From: a virus
Lineage: Duplodnaviria > Heunggongvirae > Uroviricota > Caudoviricetes
IMG/VR virus record: IMGVR_UViG_2531839239_000026
Length of the DNA: 9,175 nt
Reading direction: 5' to 3' (one strand)
Positions 1,553 to 9,175 of the stretch are shown piece by piece. The position numbers and the translations under genes were made by a program. The notes beneath the pieces were generated by a model that did not search any database, was not told the DNA's origin, and saw only the letters and a program-made list of their open reading frames with translations. Numbering within the stretch: position 1 is the first letter of the stretch; each line of letters begins with the position of its first letter.

Positions 1553-1741
1553 TCACGAGGACTGAAGTTTCTCGCAATTAAAATTTATCAGTTTTACTTT
1601 CTGCTCTCTGGAAACGCCTGCTTCTTTTTTACCTGAGAGCATTTTTTCGCATTCTGATTTCGTTAGTTTAGATTTTGAATATCTTGTCCAGTTAGTAGGA
1701 GTGCCACCTTCCTTTTCAATAGTGGCGGTAATTTTATACAT
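1553..1741 (-). CDS. ydaC: Small Rac-prophage protein YdaC-like, 62 aa
   Basis: Track ORF 1553..1813 trimmed to the ATG at 1741 (MYKITATIEKEGG...), which has a strong SD (GGAGG, 5-nt spacer). The upstream extension overlaps the ralR frame. Start overlaps the TAA that closes the ralR frame (CATGTATAA). Confidence 0.6.
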   Translation of the reverse strand: MYKITATIEKEGGTPTNWTRYSKSKLTKSECEKMLSGKKEAGVSREQKVKLINFNCEKLQSS

Positions 1742-1928
1742 GAACACCTCCATTATTATTTCCAGTGGTTCGTTTATTTCATCGTTCGAGTGCTTCTTTT
1801 TCACTTCCACCATAACCGGTTCGGGATTCGCATCCGTTACACTTCGCTCGGTAATATCCTGAAATGGCTTTCACCGTTACTGATGGACAACCACAAAATG
1901 GACATGGTTTAACATTGTCATATCTCAT
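1734..1928 (-). pseudogene. ralR: Restriction-alleviation protein / DNase toxin RalR (Lar) frame, interrupted by an in-frame TGA at 1781..1779
   Basis: My own translation of the minus strand from ATG 1928 gives MRYDNVKPCPFCGCPSVTVKAISGYYRAKCNGCESRTGYGGSEKEALER, then TGA, then NKRTTGNNNGGVHV, then TAA at 1736..1734. Reading TGA as Trp gives exactly 64 aa, the RalR length I recall. Cys-x2-Cys ... Cys-x2-Cys zinc-ribbon-like pattern. An in-frame ATG also exists at 1940 (MRKIMRY...). Confidence 0.6.
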
Positions 1929-2793: not shown

Positions 2794-5386
2794 TTGCATA
2801 TTCCTTAGCCCAGCGGGGCAGTGATAACGTCTTAATAGCTGGCCATTCATCGGTATTGAGGCAGTCAGCCAGGGTTCGCAGATTGCGGTGATATTCCAGC
2901 TGACCTGCCAGTTTTGCTTCTTCGCCCATCATGAAAATTTCAACCGGATAACGTCCGCATTCAATAGTTGTGCTGGCAACCAGAAAAACGAAAGTTGGCT
3001 GCACTCCAAACTGTGCTTCATAACCGTCACTGTAGAATGCATCCTGAACGTGATAGCGGTAGTCGTAATAAGCGGTTTTGAATCGTTGAATATCCGCCGT
3101 AGTTTTCACGTCCATGATCCAGTGAAATTCAGGGATAATTTTGTCCGGACGGCACCGACACAAAATTGCTGTTTCAGGATCTTCCCAGTAAATTGATGAT
3201 TCAGCGTGTCCGGCGCTTTCAACAAGCCATTGCCCCAGCGGCAAAGCCATAACGCTCTGATACATGAGTTCAATTTTCCGGCCTTCTTCGGCAGTGATAA
3301 CCGTTTTTCCTGTGCTTGCGCATTCCCTCAGAAACGCTTTCTCTTCTTCTTTTCCGGAGTTTGTCCGGCGGTTAAATTCAGGTGCTACGATAAAGCGGTT
3401 ACTGAATTCTTCCGGCTCAAGTACCCGGCAGTGGAAAGCGGTTCCTAAATCGAGCGTTTTTGTCTTTGTGGTGTCCACGGGGGCATTTTTACGCCACAAA
3501 TACAGTGCCGGAGTATCAGCAATGTCATCGAGCTGAGACTTACTGACACCGGGACCCGCGTGGTAATTCTCATTCGAAATTCCGTAATAAATACCTGGCT
3601 CTATGTCTTCTACGATTACGGGATCTGCGACTTCGCCAGTTTCATCACTGCAATCGCGATGCGGATCGCTGCCAGCATTCTCATTGTGCGGATGTTCAGC
3701 GCCTTCCATTTCCTCCGGATCATTTTCCTTAGCTTCAACCTGACTCTCTTCATCGAATGTTTCCTGGTATGTTGCGTCGCCCATCACCGCACCACAGTCA
3801 GGGCAGTTATCCCCGCCAGTCTGGCCGCAGGCATTGCAGGCTATTTCCGGTTCCTGTTGCACTACTGGCTCAGGTTGATTCATATCCGGGCTGGTTTTTT
3901 CCGTTTCTGGCTGGTTCTGGTACACACAATCGCGAGTCTGGATCCCCTTTACCCATTTCGGATCGTTCGGGTCGCTAATTCCGTCAACAAATTCACCACG
4001 TGATGCAGCAAGCAATTTATCGGCATCGACAGGATTTTTTGATGGAATGTTTTTCCGGGCTTCATGGAGTTCTGCCCGCAGTTCCTGATATTTCGCATCA
4101 ACAGAATTTACCTGTGACTGAGCATCCAGCGGCTGCGTGTCCTGATGATGTTCAGTTGCGTCCGGTTCCATTGTTTCAGCCTCTCCCTGTTCAACTGCCG
4201 TTGTTCCAGATGGTTGCGGTTTTTCTTCATCATCCTGTTTTCCTTCTTCTGTTACTCGCTGCGGCATCGGGGCAGAGGAGCGACCGCAGGCAATATCCAC
4301 GATTTCCGGATCAGGGTTGGCATGAGCGGTTTCAGTCAGTACTTTGTTCAGATATTCAGTGACGTGCGCGGGGATGACCTCGATCCCAATTGGTGCTTCT
4401 TTTACGGACGCAACCACGATGGCGCGGGAATAATCCAGCCCGCCAGGCATGGTGATGAATTTGTCGCGGAAAACAGAAAAGGGCGGTTTATTTTCAGCGA
4501 TAATTTCCTCAATGCGTTTAGCGTGTGCCGGATGAAGGTTATAGATGTCCAGATCCATTGAACGGGCCAGTACGCCAGTGGCTACGTCGCGCGCCAGTGA
4601 CGTCAGATCGTGTACGAAACCTTCGCCGCGATCGGTGAGGTTTCCGCCGCCAGCATTAGCACCGGAAGCCGTGCGAGTGATGTGTGAAACACGATTACCC
4701 TTCATCCACTCTTTTGTCAGCAGTCCTCGATCGGTGTAGTCAGCGTTCAGGTATGCTTCGAAAAAAGCAGTTATCAGTCCCAGGTTTGAATTACCAGGAT
4801 TAGGGAAAACTTTGTCAGTGTCACGAACCAGTTTGTGGAGTTCGCGAATTTCCAGCGGGTCGAGCAGGCTGGTTTTGTGGGAAACAGCCAGGGCAGTAAC
4901 AGCCGGTAGTTCTTCAGCCCGAGCAATGTGTAATGCCTGGAGTCCGTCGCGTGAAACGTGCGTTACCGGTTTTTCGCTGCCGTGTTGAGCAAGCCAACGA
5001 ATGGGCAGTTCCTGGCCAGAAATTGGGAGTAGCATATTCTCCTCAATCTCAGTCATGTCTTCGCCGTTGACGTTGGTATTGCCTTGATAGTGAGCGTTGT
5101 CTGGTGCTGCTCCCGGTTTTAGTTCCCATGTCATGGAGTCTTTGCTGAGTTGATAGCGTTCACTCCAGGTAAAATCGATCTCACCTTCAGCGGGCAGGTC
5201 ATTAACGACAGGAAAATTCGTGGCAACAGCTTTAAAATAGCTGCTCAGTTTTTTACCTGACTTAACGATCAGGTAGTCCAGAGTGGCACAGGTCGATTCA
5301 AAATCGTTGCTTGCCCACAGGACGACGTCAGGTTCACCGGATGATTTTTTCGCTTTCCGTAACAGGAAGAGTGGTTTTGTGCTCAT
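2786..5386 (-). CDS. recE: RecE exonuclease VIII, 866 aa
   Basis: Track ORF 2786..5386 (-), [14 protein letters not shown]..., full length 866 aa. Has an acidic, low-complexity central region and a C-terminal nuclease region. Overlaps recT. Confidence 0.9.
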
Positions 5387-7456: not shown

Positions 7457-7632
7457 CTTATCTATCCCCTTAACGCCGGGTGGCGGAACTAACTGCTGCA
7501 CTGCAAAATTTGAATCCCGCCGTCATGTTCATACGCCTCGGGCTGGCTACTTACCCCCTGACCACTGCTTGGTAACTCGAAGTATTGCCCGGCGTTCTGT
7601 GGGGCGGGGTGGGTGGTTGGTGTATGTAATCT

Positions 7633-7672
7633 ACAATAAAAAACTGTTTTTGTGTCAACAGTTTTTAATTGT
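7633..7672. promoter_or_regulatory. OL-like operator dyad with a leftward -35-like TTGACA in its spacer
   Basis: Left arm ACAATAAAAAACTGTT at 7633-7648, right arm AACAGTTTTTAATTGT at 7657-7672 (one mismatch to a perfect inverted repeat). Spacer TTTGTGTC reads TTGACA on the minus strand (7658..7653). The 16-mer left arm is identical to 8668-8683. Confidence 0.45.
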
Positions 7673-7682
7673 TGTTTTGGGC

Positions 7683-7705
7683 AAAAAAATCCCTCGAAAG
7701 AGGGA
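7683..7705 (-). terminator. Candidate intrinsic terminator downstream of parE
   Basis: Minus-strand RNA folds as UCCCUC-UUUC-GAGGGA (6-bp stem, 7690-7695 with 7700-7705) followed by seven U (plus-strand A-run 7683-7689). It starts 18 nt after the parE stop. Confidence 0.4.
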
Positions 7706-7723
7706 GTATGAAAATTGTTCAAC

Positions 7724-8011
7724 TCAGATAGAGAAGGGAAATTGTCGCCGAGAATGTGTCACGCTTACAATCTCAATGCTTGAAGCAGCTACTCTGTACA
7801 GGATTATGTAGTTAGGGTGGGTCACGATCTCTCTCAATCCAGAAACCCGTTCGCTTGGTGGATATAAGTACGGATGCTCAGATAGAGGTAATACCGATGT
7901 TTCAATGCGTATTTTTAGTCTACGTGCTGCCGGTGGGTTCTCCTTGGCGATGTAAGTTATGATCTGGCGCAAATCATCGCGAGCAGACGGTAGCCATAAA
8001 ATGGGTAACAT
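7724..8011 (-). CDS. parE: ParE/RelE-superfamily toxin (ParE-like), 95 aa
   Basis: Track ORF 7724..8011 (-). The C-terminal region ...LREIVTHPNYIILYRVAASSIEIVSVTHSRRQFP resembles the ParE/RelE fold signature. Start ATG overlaps the upstream gene's stop (TAATG), indicating translational coupling in toxin-after-antitoxin order. Confidence 0.75.
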   Translation of the reverse strand: MLPILWLPSARDDLRQIITYIAKENPPAARRLKIRIETSVLPLSEHPYLYPPSERVSGLREIVTHPNYIILYRVAASSIEIVSVTHSRRQFPFSI

Positions 8012-8202
8012 TACTCGCTCTTGTTAGTTACAGCAATTTGAGCAATAAGATTTTCCATTTCAGCCATTACCTCGTCATGTGGAATTGCGGGGCGAGTGTC
8101 TGCAAGGCTTGACGTTACTTTAGTGCGCAACCATTCGTTGTAACTGTTTTCTTGTTCGGTAGTTTCGAATTCTGAAACTATCGGAGAAAGGGCTGTACCC
8201 AT
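8011..8202 (-). CDS. paaA: Small antitoxin, PaaA-like partner of ParE, 63 aa
   Basis: Track ORF 8011..8202 (-), MGTALSPIVSEFETTEQENSYNEWLRTKV..., preceded by a strong SD (GAGGAG, 7-nt spacer). Small and acidic, immediately upstream of and coupled to the ParE-like gene. Resembles the PaaA2 antitoxin of the three-component paaR2-paaA2-parE2 system from my recall. Confidence 0.6.
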   Translation of the reverse strand: MGTALSPIVSEFETTEQENSYNEWLRTKVTSSLADTRPAIPHDEVMAEMENLIAQIAVTNKSE

Positions 8203-8229
8203 GGCATAACTCCTCTTCTTGTACTGTGG

Positions 8230-8631
8230 TCACGCCCGGCGGCTTTTTTGTGCCGCCAGCCACCTAGCAATGGTTTCTTCCATTGATTTTTTCTTGTCTT
8301 TGATTTCTTGAAGCATTTTTTCTTGGTCTTCCTCAGGAAACGCACTAAAAGCTTGGAGCAGTTCGCGTTGGCGAGGACCAATTTTCATCGTGTCAGGGGT
8401 GAAAATTTGCTCACACTCTTCAGGAGGCAATAAAAACCAATGCAATGGATGCCCTGAAACCTCAACCAGTTTATCCAAACTTGAGGCTTTAGGTGTAGCC
8501 TTACCGCTGACCCATTGTTGAACAGTTTGTTGTGTCACACCAATTCTACGGGCAAGCTCAGCCTGGCTCCATCCAGTTTCCTGAAGAAGCTTGCTGATTC
8601 TGTACATAGATACTTCTAGGGCGCTCATCAT
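8230..8631 (-). CDS. cI-like / PaaR-like HTH (XRE-family) repressor, 133 aa
   Basis: Track ORF 8230..8631 (-). HTH region ...SQAELARRIGVTQQTVQQWVSGKATPK... No LexA/S24-type peptidase C-terminal domain is apparent. Divergent from the Cro-like gene across the dyad-containing intergenic region. No SD precedes the ATG. Confidence 0.75.
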   Translation of the reverse strand: MMSALEVSMYRISKLLQETGWSQAELARRIGVTQQTVQQWVSGKATPKASSLDKLVEVSGHPLHWFLLPPEECEQIFTPDTMKIGPRQRELLQAFSAFPEEDQEKMLQEIKDKKKSMEETIARWLAAQKSRRA

Positions 8632-8667
8632 TATTCAATTTTACAGGTAAATACTGTTAAAAGCATC

Positions 8668-8706
8668 ACAATAAAAAACTGTTGATTGCATACAGTTTTT
8701 TATTGT
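8668..8706. promoter_or_regulatory. OR-like operator dyad between the divergent repressor and cro-like genes
   Basis: Perfect 15-bp inverted repeat: ACAATAAAAAACTGT at 8668-8682 and ACAGTTTTTTATTGT at 8692-8706, separated by TGATTGCAT. The spacer carries rightward -35-like TTGATT/TTGCAT hexamers. The left arm is the same 16-mer as 7633-7648. Confidence 0.5.
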
Positions 8707-8739
8707 AGGCTTTGCTTATAGTTTTTAGAGGAGGGCAAA

Positions 8740-9012
8740 ATGCTAGATAGCACTCGCGAAAAAATTAGGCAGAAATACACTCAGGCTGAAATAGGTCGTT
8801 ATATGGGGGTCGCTCAACAGACTGTTTGGCAATGGTTTAGCTTTGGCGTTCCCCCAAAGCAGGTAATTCCGTTATGCCAACTAATGAAGTGGGAAGTTAC
8901 CCCGCATGAAATCCGCCCAGATATTTATCCTAACCCAACCGACGGTTTACCTGTTGGATGTAAGGTTAACACATCAAATGCGCCGGAGTTGATTCATGAA
9001 AATCAAGCATGA
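8740..9012 (+). CDS. ydaS: Cro-like HTH regulator (YdaS family), 90 aa
   Basis: Track ORF 8740..9012 (+), MLDSTREKIRQKYTQAEIGRYMGVAQQTVWQWF... HTH-like region, GGAGG SD with a 4-nt spacer. Sits in the cro position, divergent from the repressor. Confidence 0.7.
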   Translation: MLDSTREKIRQKYTQAEIGRYMGVAQQTVWQWFSFGVPPKQVIPLCQLMKWEVTPHEIRPDIYPNPTDGLPVGCKVNTSNAPELIHENQA

Positions 9013-9175
9013 ACACATCCGCATGGCGATGAATGCCTGGGCGCATCCGGACGGCGAAAAAGTACCGGCTGCGAAAATTACCAAAGCGTATTTCGAGCTG
9101 GGAATGACGTTCCCGGAACTGTATGACGACAGCCATCCGGAAGCCATGGCTCGCAATACTCAGAAAATTTTCCGT
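8996..9175 (+). CDS. ydaT: YdaT-like protein, N-terminal 60 codons (runs off the window end)
   Basis: ATG at 8996 preceded by GGAG with a 7-nt spacer. Translation MKIKHEHIRMAMNAWAHPDGEKVPAAKITKAYFELGMTFPELYDDSHPEAMARNTQKIFR stays open to the window end. Overlaps the ydaS 3' end by 17 nt. Confidence 0.65.
   Translation, partial: MKIKHEHIRMAMNAWAHPDGEKVPAAKITKAYFELGMTFPELYDDSHPEAMARNTQKIFR

Follow-up and report, generated by a model that had tools for sequence, protein, structure and literature searches.

The region upstream of the repressor gene in a 9,175-nucleotide stretch of DNA from a virus of the Caudoviricetes (IMG/VR record IMGVR_UViG_2531839239_000026; hereafter the window) is best explained as the PRM-type maintenance promoter of a lambdoid prophage immunity region, making a leaderless repressor mRNA. 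We assign this reading a probability of about 0.88. Transcription starts mapped on identical DNA show that RNA polymerase uses the hexamer TAAAAT as its -10 element and starts on the A of the repressor ATG at position 8631. Because transcription starts on this A, the mRNA begins with AUG and has neither a 5′ untranslated region (UTR) nor a Shine-Dalgarno (SD) sequence. Coordinates of the features are collected in Table 1.

Window positions 7519–9174 match prophage CP-933M of E. coli O157:H7 strain EDL933 base for base (100% identity), and a position in the EDL933 record equals the window position plus 1247063. The transcription start sites (TSS) used here come from EDL933, where the module lies in CP-933M. 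The window has another host and another left arm, whereas all cis elements from PL through ydaT are identical. Cappable-seq, which selects triphosphorylated primary 5′ ends, assigns to EDL933_RS06140 (CDS 1255293..1255694) a main TSS at 1255694(-) in 8/8 conditions (PMC10469882, Tables S5 and S7). Since the two sequences are identical over this range, the start maps to window position 8631, which is the A of the annotated ATG, and the 5′ UTR is 0 nt long. Mean read scores tabulated for this start are 598, 565, 653, 509, 508, 387, 361 and 441, with a threshold of 1.5; dnaK and talB have lower scores there. The tabulated TSS of ydaS, 1255781(+), corresponds to the A at window position 8718 and was called in 6/8 conditions. 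As far as these tables go, the 8631 start is shown to be constitutive and strong in a lysogen with identical DNA, the divergent ydaS promoter being nearly silent. The preliminary description of this DNA had proposed a leaderless transcript from the letters alone and had named a start mapped far upstream, behind a conventional leader, as the contrary outcome; the published main TSS is found on the A of the ATG instead.

Table 1. Features of the repressor immunity region in window coordinates
Feature	Position	Strand	Remarks
PL-like promoter	7621..7672	-	TSS 7621 = 1254684(-); -10 TAGATT 7633..7628; -35 TTGACA 7658..7653
Operator at PL	7633-7647		ACAR-N7-YTGT motif
Operator at PL	7658-7672		ACAR-N7-YTGT motif
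Intrinsic-terminator-like hairpin and T run	7690..7705	-	just past parE
parE toxin gene	7724..8011	-	95 aa; PF05016 E=2.9e-17; 67% identity to ParE2; start overlaps paaA stop
paaA antitoxin gene	8011..8202	-	63 aa; PF21217 PaaA2 E=5.6e-19; own SD AGGAG
Repressor gene, CP-933M-type 'paaR1'	8230..8631	-	133 aa; N-terminal XRE/Cro-CI type HTH, HTH_3 E=2.3e-12
Start codon ATG	8629..8631	-	A (8631) also +1 (Cappable-seq); ATGATG = 8631..8626
Gap TGAATA	8632..8637	-	6 nt from -10 to +1; length conserved, sequence not
-10 hexamer TAAAAT	8638..8643	-	positions -12..-7 of the PRM-like promoter; 5/6 match to TATAAT
Operator-like element ACAGGTAAATACTGT	8643-8657		centre -19, OR3-like; overlaps PRM-like -10 and spacer
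Weak -35 ATGCTT	8661..8666	-	17-bp spacer; 2/6 matches to TTGACA
Operator-like element ACAATAAAAAACTGT	8668-8682		centre -44, OR2-like; one base upstream of PRM -35
PR-like promoter of ydaS-like gene	8682..8718	+	-35 TTGATT 8682-8687; 18-bp spacer; -10 TAGGCT 8706-8711; TSS 8718
Operator-like element ACAGTTTTTTATTGT	8692-8706		centre -68, OR1-like; within PR spacer
ydaS-like (Cro-analogue) gene	8740..9012	+	divergent from repressor; PF15943 E=8e-10; strong SD
Perfect YdaT box TTGATT-N6-AATCAA	8989..9006		ydaS/ydaT junction; one perfect site, 0.09 expected

The layout which that description had read on the minus strand at 8643..8626, namely TAAAAT followed by TGAATA and ATGATG, is correct in every sequence statement. 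Its judgement of ATGCTT as a poor -35 also holds, as this hexamer agrees with TTGACA at only 2/6 positions and lies one base from the edge of an inverted repeat at 8668. Such an arrangement is rare in the window. Among the 324 ATG triplets on both strands, TAnnnT stands 6 nt upstream of five, and TAnAAT stands exactly 6 nt upstream of a single one (1/324), which is the repressor ATG. A generic sigma-70 scan of the intergenic region reported no promoter, but its 9-of-12 threshold shuts out promoters with a weak -35 and its silence is therefore not evidence against the TAAAAT site. The TG ahead of TAAAAT was considered as an extended -10 element and rejected; it occupies -14/-13, one base off the canonical -15/-14, and is better explained as the end of an operator (YTGT), a like overlap being present at PR and PL.

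The promoter core was compared in 15 loci, consisting of the window and 14 homologues of 42–80% protein identity, with upstream regions taken from the contigs encoding these homologues. TAnAAT is present before the first in-frame ATG in 15/15 loci, at a distance of 6 nt in 11, 7 nt in three and 8 nt in one, and the repressor start codon is ATG in all 15. In the seven closest loci the -10 hexamer varies at only 1/6 positions. The gap between -10 and ATG is free in sequence, with variation at 6/6 positions. Conservation of the -35 in the homologues is restricted to the G and A at positions 3 and 4 of TTGACA. A family-alignment scan of genome contigs yielded only three loci, and the Citrobacter locus L003, whose upstream context differs, was excluded.

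Initiation of translation at the 5′ end is indicated by several features of the repressor gene. Pairing of the stretch from -20 to -1 with the 3′ end of 16S rRNA amounts to +0.4 kcal/mol at the repressor ATG, in agreement with the missing SD of the preliminary description, as compared to -12.5 kcal/mol for the divergent ydaS-like gene and -8.6 kcal/mol for paaA. Over the 15 loci the repressor genes average -1.05 kcal/mol in this pairing, and their divergent ydaS-like neighbours -7.3 kcal/mol. Folding of the initial 50 nt of the mRNA does not exceed that of shuffled sequences (z = +1.0). A 5′-terminal AUG of leaderless mRNAs is recognised directly by ribosomes (as cited in PMC8630535). Residues 1–8 of the repressor are conserved as protein, and in codons 3–8 two of six first positions, one of six second positions and all six third positions vary. 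Judged by this codon pattern, the first repressor codons are very probably translated, which places the predicted N-terminus at the 5′-terminal AUG.

Transcription from 8631 could also be combined with translation from the ATG of Met9 (8607..8605), giving a 125-aa protein behind a 24-nt leader that contains a weak SD-like element, AGAAG, 5 nt ahead of that ATG. Database lengths for the repressor family do disagree (125, 127, 132, 133 and 135 aa), the 125-aa version being found in some entries (P0023, P0045), and the Pfam match of the HTH starts only at residue ~11–13. Nevertheless, the groups with ~60–65% identity have Thr or Ala instead of Met9, the conservation of residues 3–8 with its codon-position pattern is that of a protein, and in two loci (L007 and L010) an in-frame ATG upstream of the called start is the one that stands 6 nt past the -10. 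We therefore consider initiation at Met9 very improbable, and the rule of a -10 hexamer, 6 nt and ATG should fix the true start codon for the repressor family.

It might further be argued that the functional mRNA is leadered and originates from a promoter farther upstream (the TSS at 8955 or the hexamer TACAAT at 8707..8702), the 5′ end at 8631 being a processing product or an unproductive start. The tables of PMC10469882 contain an antisense TSS at 1256018(-), equal to window 8955(-), in 8/8 conditions and a second minus-strand TSS at window 8818 in one condition. Moreover, 42.5 bp separate the 8955(-) start from the centre of the perfect YdaT box (as defined in PMC9986795) upstream of it, an arrangement analogous to lambda PRE, so that box and start together may form a PRE-like second route to repressor transcription, and a repressor transcript with a long leader could come in addition from the 8955(-) start. 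TACAAT resembles a -10 well; as a real -10 it was rejected, since PMC10469882 reports no TSS 7 nt downstream of it. A leadered transcript would have no SD ahead of the ATG, the start at 8631 is called the main TSS of the gene with very high scores in all conditions by a method that selects primary ends (PMC10469882, same tables), the -10 is conserved at the right distance in 15 loci, and the paralogue paaR2 is proven leaderless (PMC8630535). That the leadered form is the functional one thus appears highly unlikely.

The maintenance promoter faces PR across three operator-like elements, of which the proximal one covers the PRM core and the distal ones cover PR. ACAGGTAAATACTGT and ACAGTTTTTTATTGT end on the T with which TAAAAT and the PR -10, respectively, begin, and the end of ACAATAAAAAACTGT takes in the initial T of the PR -35. 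Their motif, ACAR-N7-YTGT, has 8 matches as compared to 0.77 expected, clustered at OR and OL. The elements at 8668-8682 and 8692-8706 form a perfect 15-nt inverted repeat, which the preliminary description had taken for an operator dyad. The inverted repeat is indeed present, but its halves are more plausibly regarded as two distinct 15-bp operators, each an inverted copy of the other, than as a single dyad. The third operator (8643-8657), which overlaps the -10, was absent from that description. The -19 element keeps its position in 12/15 loci, elements centred on -19, -44 and -68 are met again in other loci, and the spacing from the -44 operator to the -10 is ungapped in most homologues. 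From this anatomy and conservation we infer that the three 15-bp sites would be bound by the repressor in an OR1/OR2/OR3-like layout. The two distal operators, overlapping the ydaS promoter, would then shut it off, and the proximal one, lying over the repressor's own -10 and spacer, would limit the repressor promoter at high repressor level. Tabulated scores of 0–22 for PR versus 361–653 for PRM in the lysogen (PMC10469882) are consistent with a repressor that binds these putative operators and represses PR.

Comparison with real lambda DNA supports the likeness to lambda pRM that had been pointed out earlier, both in the -10, gap and ATG and in the geometry of the three operators. Lambda has TAGATT, 6 nt and ATG where the window has TAAAAT, 6 nt and ATG; in both, the transcript starts at the A of the start codon, an SD is absent and the -35 is weak. 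In both, three operators separate the divergent PRM and PR, and the one nearest the repressor gene extends over the first bases of the PRM -10. Lambda OR3, OR2 and OR1 are centred on -19, -42 and -66 and the corresponding sites of the window on -19, -44 and -68, which places the OR2-like site 2 bp farther from the start. Further differences are the length of the operators (15 bp versus 17 bp in lambda), the repressor, which is a 133-aa XRE-type protein without the LexA/S24 self-cleavage domain, and YdaS and YdaT, which are the analogues of Cro and CII but bear no sequence relationship to these lambda proteins. The genes that follow the repressor in the same operon are rexAB in lambda and of the paaA-parE type here (compared in PMC9986795).

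If the analogy with lambda and PaaR2 extends this far, occupation of the -44 site by the repressor might also stimulate the weak -35 promoter. However, a lambda-like sigma contact is not guaranteed, because the OR2-like centre is at -44 and not -42. The promoter may instead be leaderless without being activated by the repressor, owing its strength to a -10 close to consensus and to UP-like, A/T-rich DNA farther upstream. The repressor would then act by repression only, at PR through the distal sites and at its own promoter through the -19 site. A -10 with five of six consensus bases and the displaced OR2-like centre agree with this, as does the T-rich stretch from -37 to -51, ACAGTTTTTTATTGT; A/T-rich DNA upstream of the -35 could provide promoter strength without any activator. 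The scores of 361–653, above those of dnaK and talB (PMC10469882, tabulated values), point in the same direction. For PaaR2, ~4-fold activation at low level and repression at high level were reported, but full induction repressed both promoters up to 45-fold and the 4-fold 'activation' was inferred from leaky expression only (PMC8630535). On the other side stand the -35 with 2/6 matches, the distance between the -44 operator and the -10, whose ungapped conservation in most homologues is expected if spacing matters, and the activation from the equivalent site by lambda repressor and, reportedly, PaaR2. A promoter independent of activation is a possibility that we take seriously, although we would not expect it to be correct.

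The repressor, which is the same protein as WP_000986592.1, heads a probable three-component paaR-paaA-parE toxin-antitoxin operon, and the CP-933M copy has been called a homologue of the PaaR-PaaA-ParE system in the literature. Both a PaaA-family antitoxin without DNA-binding domain and, after it, a ParE toxin are present; PaaA aligns with PaaA2 (PDB 3zbe) over 53 residues with E=1.4e-20. The gap between repressor and paaA is 27 bp, internal starts among those tabulated are weak only, with a score of 1–8 (PMC10469882), and the hairpin after parE is the probable end of the operon. All three fit the co-transcription of repressor and toxin-antitoxin genes that had been proposed in the preliminary description. 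Going by this anatomy and its conservation, paaA and parE would be carried on the repressor transcript, each with its own ribosome-binding arrangement and with a terminator behind them, so that the toxin-antitoxin pair would be expressed in the lysogenic state. Two locus-tag candidates for the module were discarded, Z1327 being DicF and ECs1070 occurring only in a microarray list.

The closest described system is paaR2-paaA2-parE2 of the cryptic prophage CP-933P with its promoter PRM933P, which shares with the window the operon architecture and the place in the immunity region opposite ydaS-ydaT. Leaderless expression of paaR2 was established by 5′ RACE, N-terminal sequencing and mass spectrometry (Jurenas et al. 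2021, PMC8630535). The CP-933P promoter region, rebuilt from overlapping primers (Table S3, PMC8630535) and recovered from genomes, has GATAAT, TACCAC and ATG where the window has TAAAAT, TGAATA and ATG, so the promoter geometry is identical. The C-terminal domain of the window repressor is 42% identical to PaaR2 over 98 residues (E=2e-20), whereas the alignment does not reach its first ~36 residues, and the sequence homologues of the window repressor did not include PaaR2. By these alignments it is a domain-level homologue of PaaR2 with a putatively different DNA specificity. CP-933P has four 18-bp palindromes of the GTTTAGTAA type in a 97-bp spacer as compared to three ACAR-N7-YTGT sites in a 108-bp spacer in the window, and its YdaS is unrelated to that of the window. 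Because the operators, YdaS and the N-terminal region of the repressor all differ, the two prophages are presumably heteroimmune. The left arm of the window resembles the Rac prophage of E. coli K-12 (intR, recET, sieB, and ralR with RalA), and the RacR-YdaS-YdaT region of Rac likewise has the repressor divergent from ydaS-ydaT.

These results extend a design proven for lambda cI and PaaR2 to a second, heteroimmune and widespread repressor lineage. They also define, for a class of prophages frequent in enterohaemorrhagic E. coli, the operator motif and how PRM, PR and PL are arranged, with expression of a ParE toxin module apparently tied to the lysogenic state. They open no new question, as phenomenon and mechanism are textbook knowledge in lambda and have been in print since 2021 for the paralogue (PMC8630535). 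One speculative consequence concerns the polycistronic mRNA, in which a leaderless repressor cistron would be joined to SD-led paaA and parE cistrons that are seemingly translationally coupled. Shifts between leaderless and canonical initiation might then alter the ratio of repressor to antitoxin to toxin with transcription unchanged, an idea we consider unlikely to be correct. If true, the ratio would respond to initiation-factor levels, growth phase, cold and aminoglycosides such as kasugamycin, and would feed the bistable switch reported for the paralogous locus. Toxin-antitoxin cargo lies behind the repressor in only some loci of the family; a leaderless design kept across PaaR-type repressors whatever the cargo would be consistent with selection on a translational property.

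Sequenced phages in the collection include no close relative, all matches being below 60% identity and mostly confined to one domain. Among 5426 complete E. coli genomes, 506 carry at least 80% of the immunity segment 7700-9175, and the design is also present in relatives from Salmonella, Klebsiella, Raoultella, Morganella, Pluralibacter, Rahnella and Arsenophonus.

Inspection of the plus-strand sequence at 8620-8669, ggcgctcatcattattcaattttacaggtaaatactgttaaaagcatcac, allows the order TAAAAT, TGAATA and ATGATG, as put forward in the preliminary description, to be read directly on the minus strand. The two accompanying claims, that a purine-rich Shine-Dalgarno (SD) sequence is absent and that a poor -35 lies beside the edge of a dyad at 8668, are borne out as well. 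The region from -20 to -1 of the repressor gene pairs with the 3' end of 16S rRNA at +0.4 kcal/mol, as compared with -12.5 kcal/mol for the divergent gene and -8.6 kcal/mol for the next downstream gene by the same measure. The window holds 324 ATGs, counting both strands, and TAnAAT stands exactly 6 nt ahead of just one of them, the repressor start. This promoter was not reported by a generic promoter scan of the window because the threshold of the scan demands a better -35.

Coordinates of promoter, operator and start-codon features in the window
Feature	Coordinates	Strand	Basis or remark
-10 hexamer TAAAAT	8643..8638	minus	sequence
Gap TGAATA	8637..8632	minus	sequence
ATGATG, opening the 133-codon ORF 8631..8230	8631..8626	minus	sequence
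-35 position ATGCTT	8666..8661	minus	17-bp spacer; TTGACA matched at 2/6 positions
Inverted repeat, 15 nt, perfect	8668-8682 / 8692-8706		one base (8667) between repeat and -35 position
PR (ydaS promoter), -35 TTGATT and -10 TAGGCT	8682-8687 and 8706-8711	plus	TSS 8718, 7 nt past TAGGCT
Candidate promoter for the 8749 TSS, TTGCTT, 18 bp, CAAAAT	8712-8717 and 8736-8741	plus
Candidate operators, divergent intergenic region	8643-8657, 8668-8682, 8692-8706		motif
Candidate operators, PL region	7633-7647, 7658-7672		motif
PL (leftward promoter) analogue, -10 TAGATT and -35 TTGACA	TSS 7621; 7633..7628 and 7658..7653	minus	Cappable-seq TSS

Primary 5' ends have been mapped genome-wide by Cappable-seq in E. 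coli O157:H7 strain EDL933 under eight conditions on NZ_CP008957, where the repressor is EDL933_RS06140 (1255293..1255694, minus strand). The gene TSS of EDL933_RS06140 is 1255694 in 8/8 conditions (Table S5) and this position is its main gene TSS in every condition (Table S7), with mean relative read scores of 598, 565, 653, 509, 508, 387, 361 and 441 against a calling threshold of 1.5 (PMC10469882). Scores for comparison, from the part of Table S7 that was covered, are 30-254 for dnaK and 68-150 for talB. Window 7519-9174 is identical to this record (record coordinate = window + 1247063), and therefore the TSS corresponds to 8631, the A of the first ATG, giving a 5' UTR of 0 nt. The leaderless transcript proposed earlier is thus upheld by a published main start on identical DNA. 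The TSS of the ydaS-like gene, 1255781 (+), corresponds to window 8718 and scores 0-22 (PMC10469882); the repressor promoter (PRM) is on and the rightward promoter nearly off in the EDL933 lysogen. Our literature search found no paper on the promoter of the CP-933M-type copy, and the TSS stands uncommented in a supplementary table.

Repressor homologues were collected and their loci fetched, the aligned subset spanning 80% down to 42% identity. A divergent ydaS-like gene is present about 110 bp upstream in all analysed loci except L014 (homologous loci L002 and L004 lay outside this check). Hexamer-anchored alignment reveals TAnAAT ahead of the first in-frame ATG in 15/15 loci (the window and 14 homologues), at a distance of 6 nt in 11 loci, 7 nt in three and 8 nt in one, and in the seven closest loci 6/6 positions vary in the gap versus 1/6 in the hexamer. 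No convincing SD was found in any of the repressor genes (mean pairing -1.05 kcal/mol); the ydaS-like genes of the same loci average -7.3 kcal/mol, with a recognisable SD core in 11/12. Selection maintains the -10-to-ATG geometry.

Residues 1-8, (M)M-x-[AT]-[LIM]-[ED]-[VI]-[ST], are conserved as protein among the homologues. Variable sites in codons 3-8 fall at 6/6 third, 2/6 first and 1/6 second positions, which in these alignments is the signature of translated sequence; by this comparative measure, the first repressor codons are translated. The first 50 nt of the repressor mRNA fold at -5.1 kcal/mol (z = +1.0), no better than shuffled sequence, and this fits an accessible 5'-terminal AUG, through which leaderless mRNAs are bound (as cited in PMC8630535). 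Met9 of the window protein was rejected as a general start because it is Thr or Ala in the groups of ~60-65% identity. The called starts of L007 and L010 are downstream ATGs; the ATG located 6 nt past the hexamer is in the same frame, 2-3 codons further upstream, and serves as the start in some database entries (MKRMTTLEIT). Database start calls conflict across the protein matches P0001-P0069 (125, 127, 132, 133, 135 and 138 aa); a common rule, '-10 plus 6 nt', would make them uniform.

The window contains eight copies of the motif ACAR-N7-YTGT where 0.77 would be expected, and 0/200 shuffles reach eight. Relative to +1 at 8631, the centres of the intergenic copies lie at -19, -44 and -68 and recur in homologous loci, whereas the scattered copies at 4101, 6246 and 6617 are probably due to chance. 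The dyad of the preliminary description is a real repeat, but it is better read as two mutually inverted operator copies than as a single unit. A third candidate operator overlaps the -10 and spacer of the repressor promoter. At PRM -10, PR -35, PR -10, PL -35 and PL -10, the hexamer begins with the T on which an operator ends. An operator end is a better explanation of the conserved TG in front of TAAAAT than an extended -10 would be, since the TG is displaced by one base from the extended -10 register. Both PL candidate operators (7633-7672) overlap the promoter of the mapped 7621 (-) TSS, and one has the same sequence as the 8692-8706 / 8668-8682 copies. In the groups of L007 (1870-2000), L011 (1290-1392) and L002 (2380-2495), operators read ACAC...GTGT instead of ACAG...CTGT, and the recognition helix is QQSVQKW or QQTVQRW in place of QQTVQQW; the sequences suggest that repressor specificity co-varies with the operator half-site.

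Measured alike, lambda (NC_001416) has TAGATT, TAACGT and ATG, with annotated OR3, OR2 and OR1 centres at -19, -42 and -66, in agreement with the lambda-like layout claimed for the window. For paaR2, the paralogue in EDL933 prophage CP-933P, 5' RACE has placed the TSS on the start codon (Jurenas et al. 2021, PMC8630535). The PaaR2 protein begins MQKKE and has the expected mass, and footprints of PaaR2 and YdaS cover both CP-933P promoters. PRM933P activity rises about 4-fold at leaky PaaR2 levels, and both promoters are repressed up to 45-fold once PaaR2 is fully induced; a PRE-like promoter is activated by YdaT (PMC8630535). We rebuilt the paaR2 5' end from the primer table of that study and then fetched the locus, which has GATAAT, TACCAC and ATG, the same 6-nt geometry as in the window. 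The window repressor aligns with PaaR2 in the C-terminal domain only (42% identity over 98 residues), its first ~36 residues remaining unaligned, the two YdaS proteins are unrelated, and the published PaaR2 operators are of the GTTTAGTAA type, from which the window sites differ. The ParE proteins are 67% identical. The window module is a presumably heteroimmune sibling of the CP-933P system and a distinct system.

Transcription of the repressor begins at the A of the ATG, from a promoter that is strong and constitutive in the lysogen and faces a weak divergent promoter. From the anatomy, the repressor would bind the three candidate operators, the distal pair would block PR and the proximal operator would limit PRM at high repressor. 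The paaA and parE genes would be carried on the repressor transcript; this fits the 27-bp gap, the scores of only 1-8 for internal starts and the terminator-like hairpin (7705..7690) downstream of parE. Repressor bound at the -44 site may, purely by analogy, stimulate the weak -35 promoter. Alternatively, the promoter could be intrinsically strong, aided by T-rich upstream DNA and independent of repressor stimulation, which we regard as a real but lesser possibility. The leaderless, lambda-like reading is right overall, given the TSS on the ATG and the matching operator layout. The window repressor is a well-supported further case of a known design, and the mechanism itself is not new. Useful products are a rule for choosing the start codon in a repressor family that is often mis-annotated, an operator motif, and a map of the promoters in a prophage class frequent in EHEC.

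The protein encoded by the repressor ORF belongs to the XRE/Cro-CI helix-turn-helix type (HTH_3, E=2.3e-12). Downstream of this ORF, in the same orientation, come genes for an antitoxin of the PaaA2 family (PF21217, E=5.6e-19), which matches solved structures of PaaA2 at E=1.4e-20, and for a ParE toxin (PF05016). Opposite lies the divergent YdaS-family gene, followed by a ydaT-like fragment without a Pfam match; the corresponding gene on identical DNA carries the annotation 'toxin YdaT family protein'. Repressor residues 2-67 (HTH domain) are 45-55% identical to CI repressors from phage phi467 and from several Stx2a-converting phages (records H92, H99-H103), and the C-terminal domain matches PaaR2 and phage Evi instead, which points, at the level of sequence, to domain shuffling among prophage repressors. 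The repressor is followed by PaaA and ParE in the window, L007 and L011 but by unrelated ORFs in L005, L006, L009, L015 and L016; the promoter and operator design is kept although this cargo swaps. The toxin-antitoxin pair behaves like a moron, in the position held by rexAB in lambda.

Two further starts are recorded in 8/8 conditions. One, at 8749 (+) (EDL933 1255812), lies within codon 4 of the ydaS-like gene and was assigned to ydaT by the authors (PMC10469882); its candidate promoter would transcribe ydaT without intact ydaS. The other, antisense, is at 8955 (-) (EDL933 1256018-). A perfect published YdaT recognition site, TTGATT-N6-AATCAA, is present at the ydaS/ydaT junction (8989-9006), centred 42.5 bp upstream of 8955 (-), and together they look like an analogue of PRE. 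From it, a further repressor transcript would arise, its leader ~324 nt long and lacking an SD ahead of the repressor ATG.

Segment 7700-9175 has 100% identical copies in many EHEC genomes, and its O157:H7 copy adjoins yccA. The literature places a paaR2-paaA2-parE2 homologue in prophage CP-933M, which we identify as this yccA-adjoining copy. The remaining window is a Rac-type prophage left arm with integrase, recT, recE and sieB. A mosaic joint is seen at 7518/7519: the right side through 9174 is 100% identical to EDL933 CP-933M, while the left is a Rac-type arm (intR, recT, recE, sieB) unlike CP-933M, and the top complete-genome matches span 85% of the window only, split in two pieces. An RalA sRNA (Rfam 225 bits; gathering score 170; described as 'RalR antitoxin') is located at 1557-1735 (+), and the antisense ORF 1553-1813 (-) is presumably ralR.
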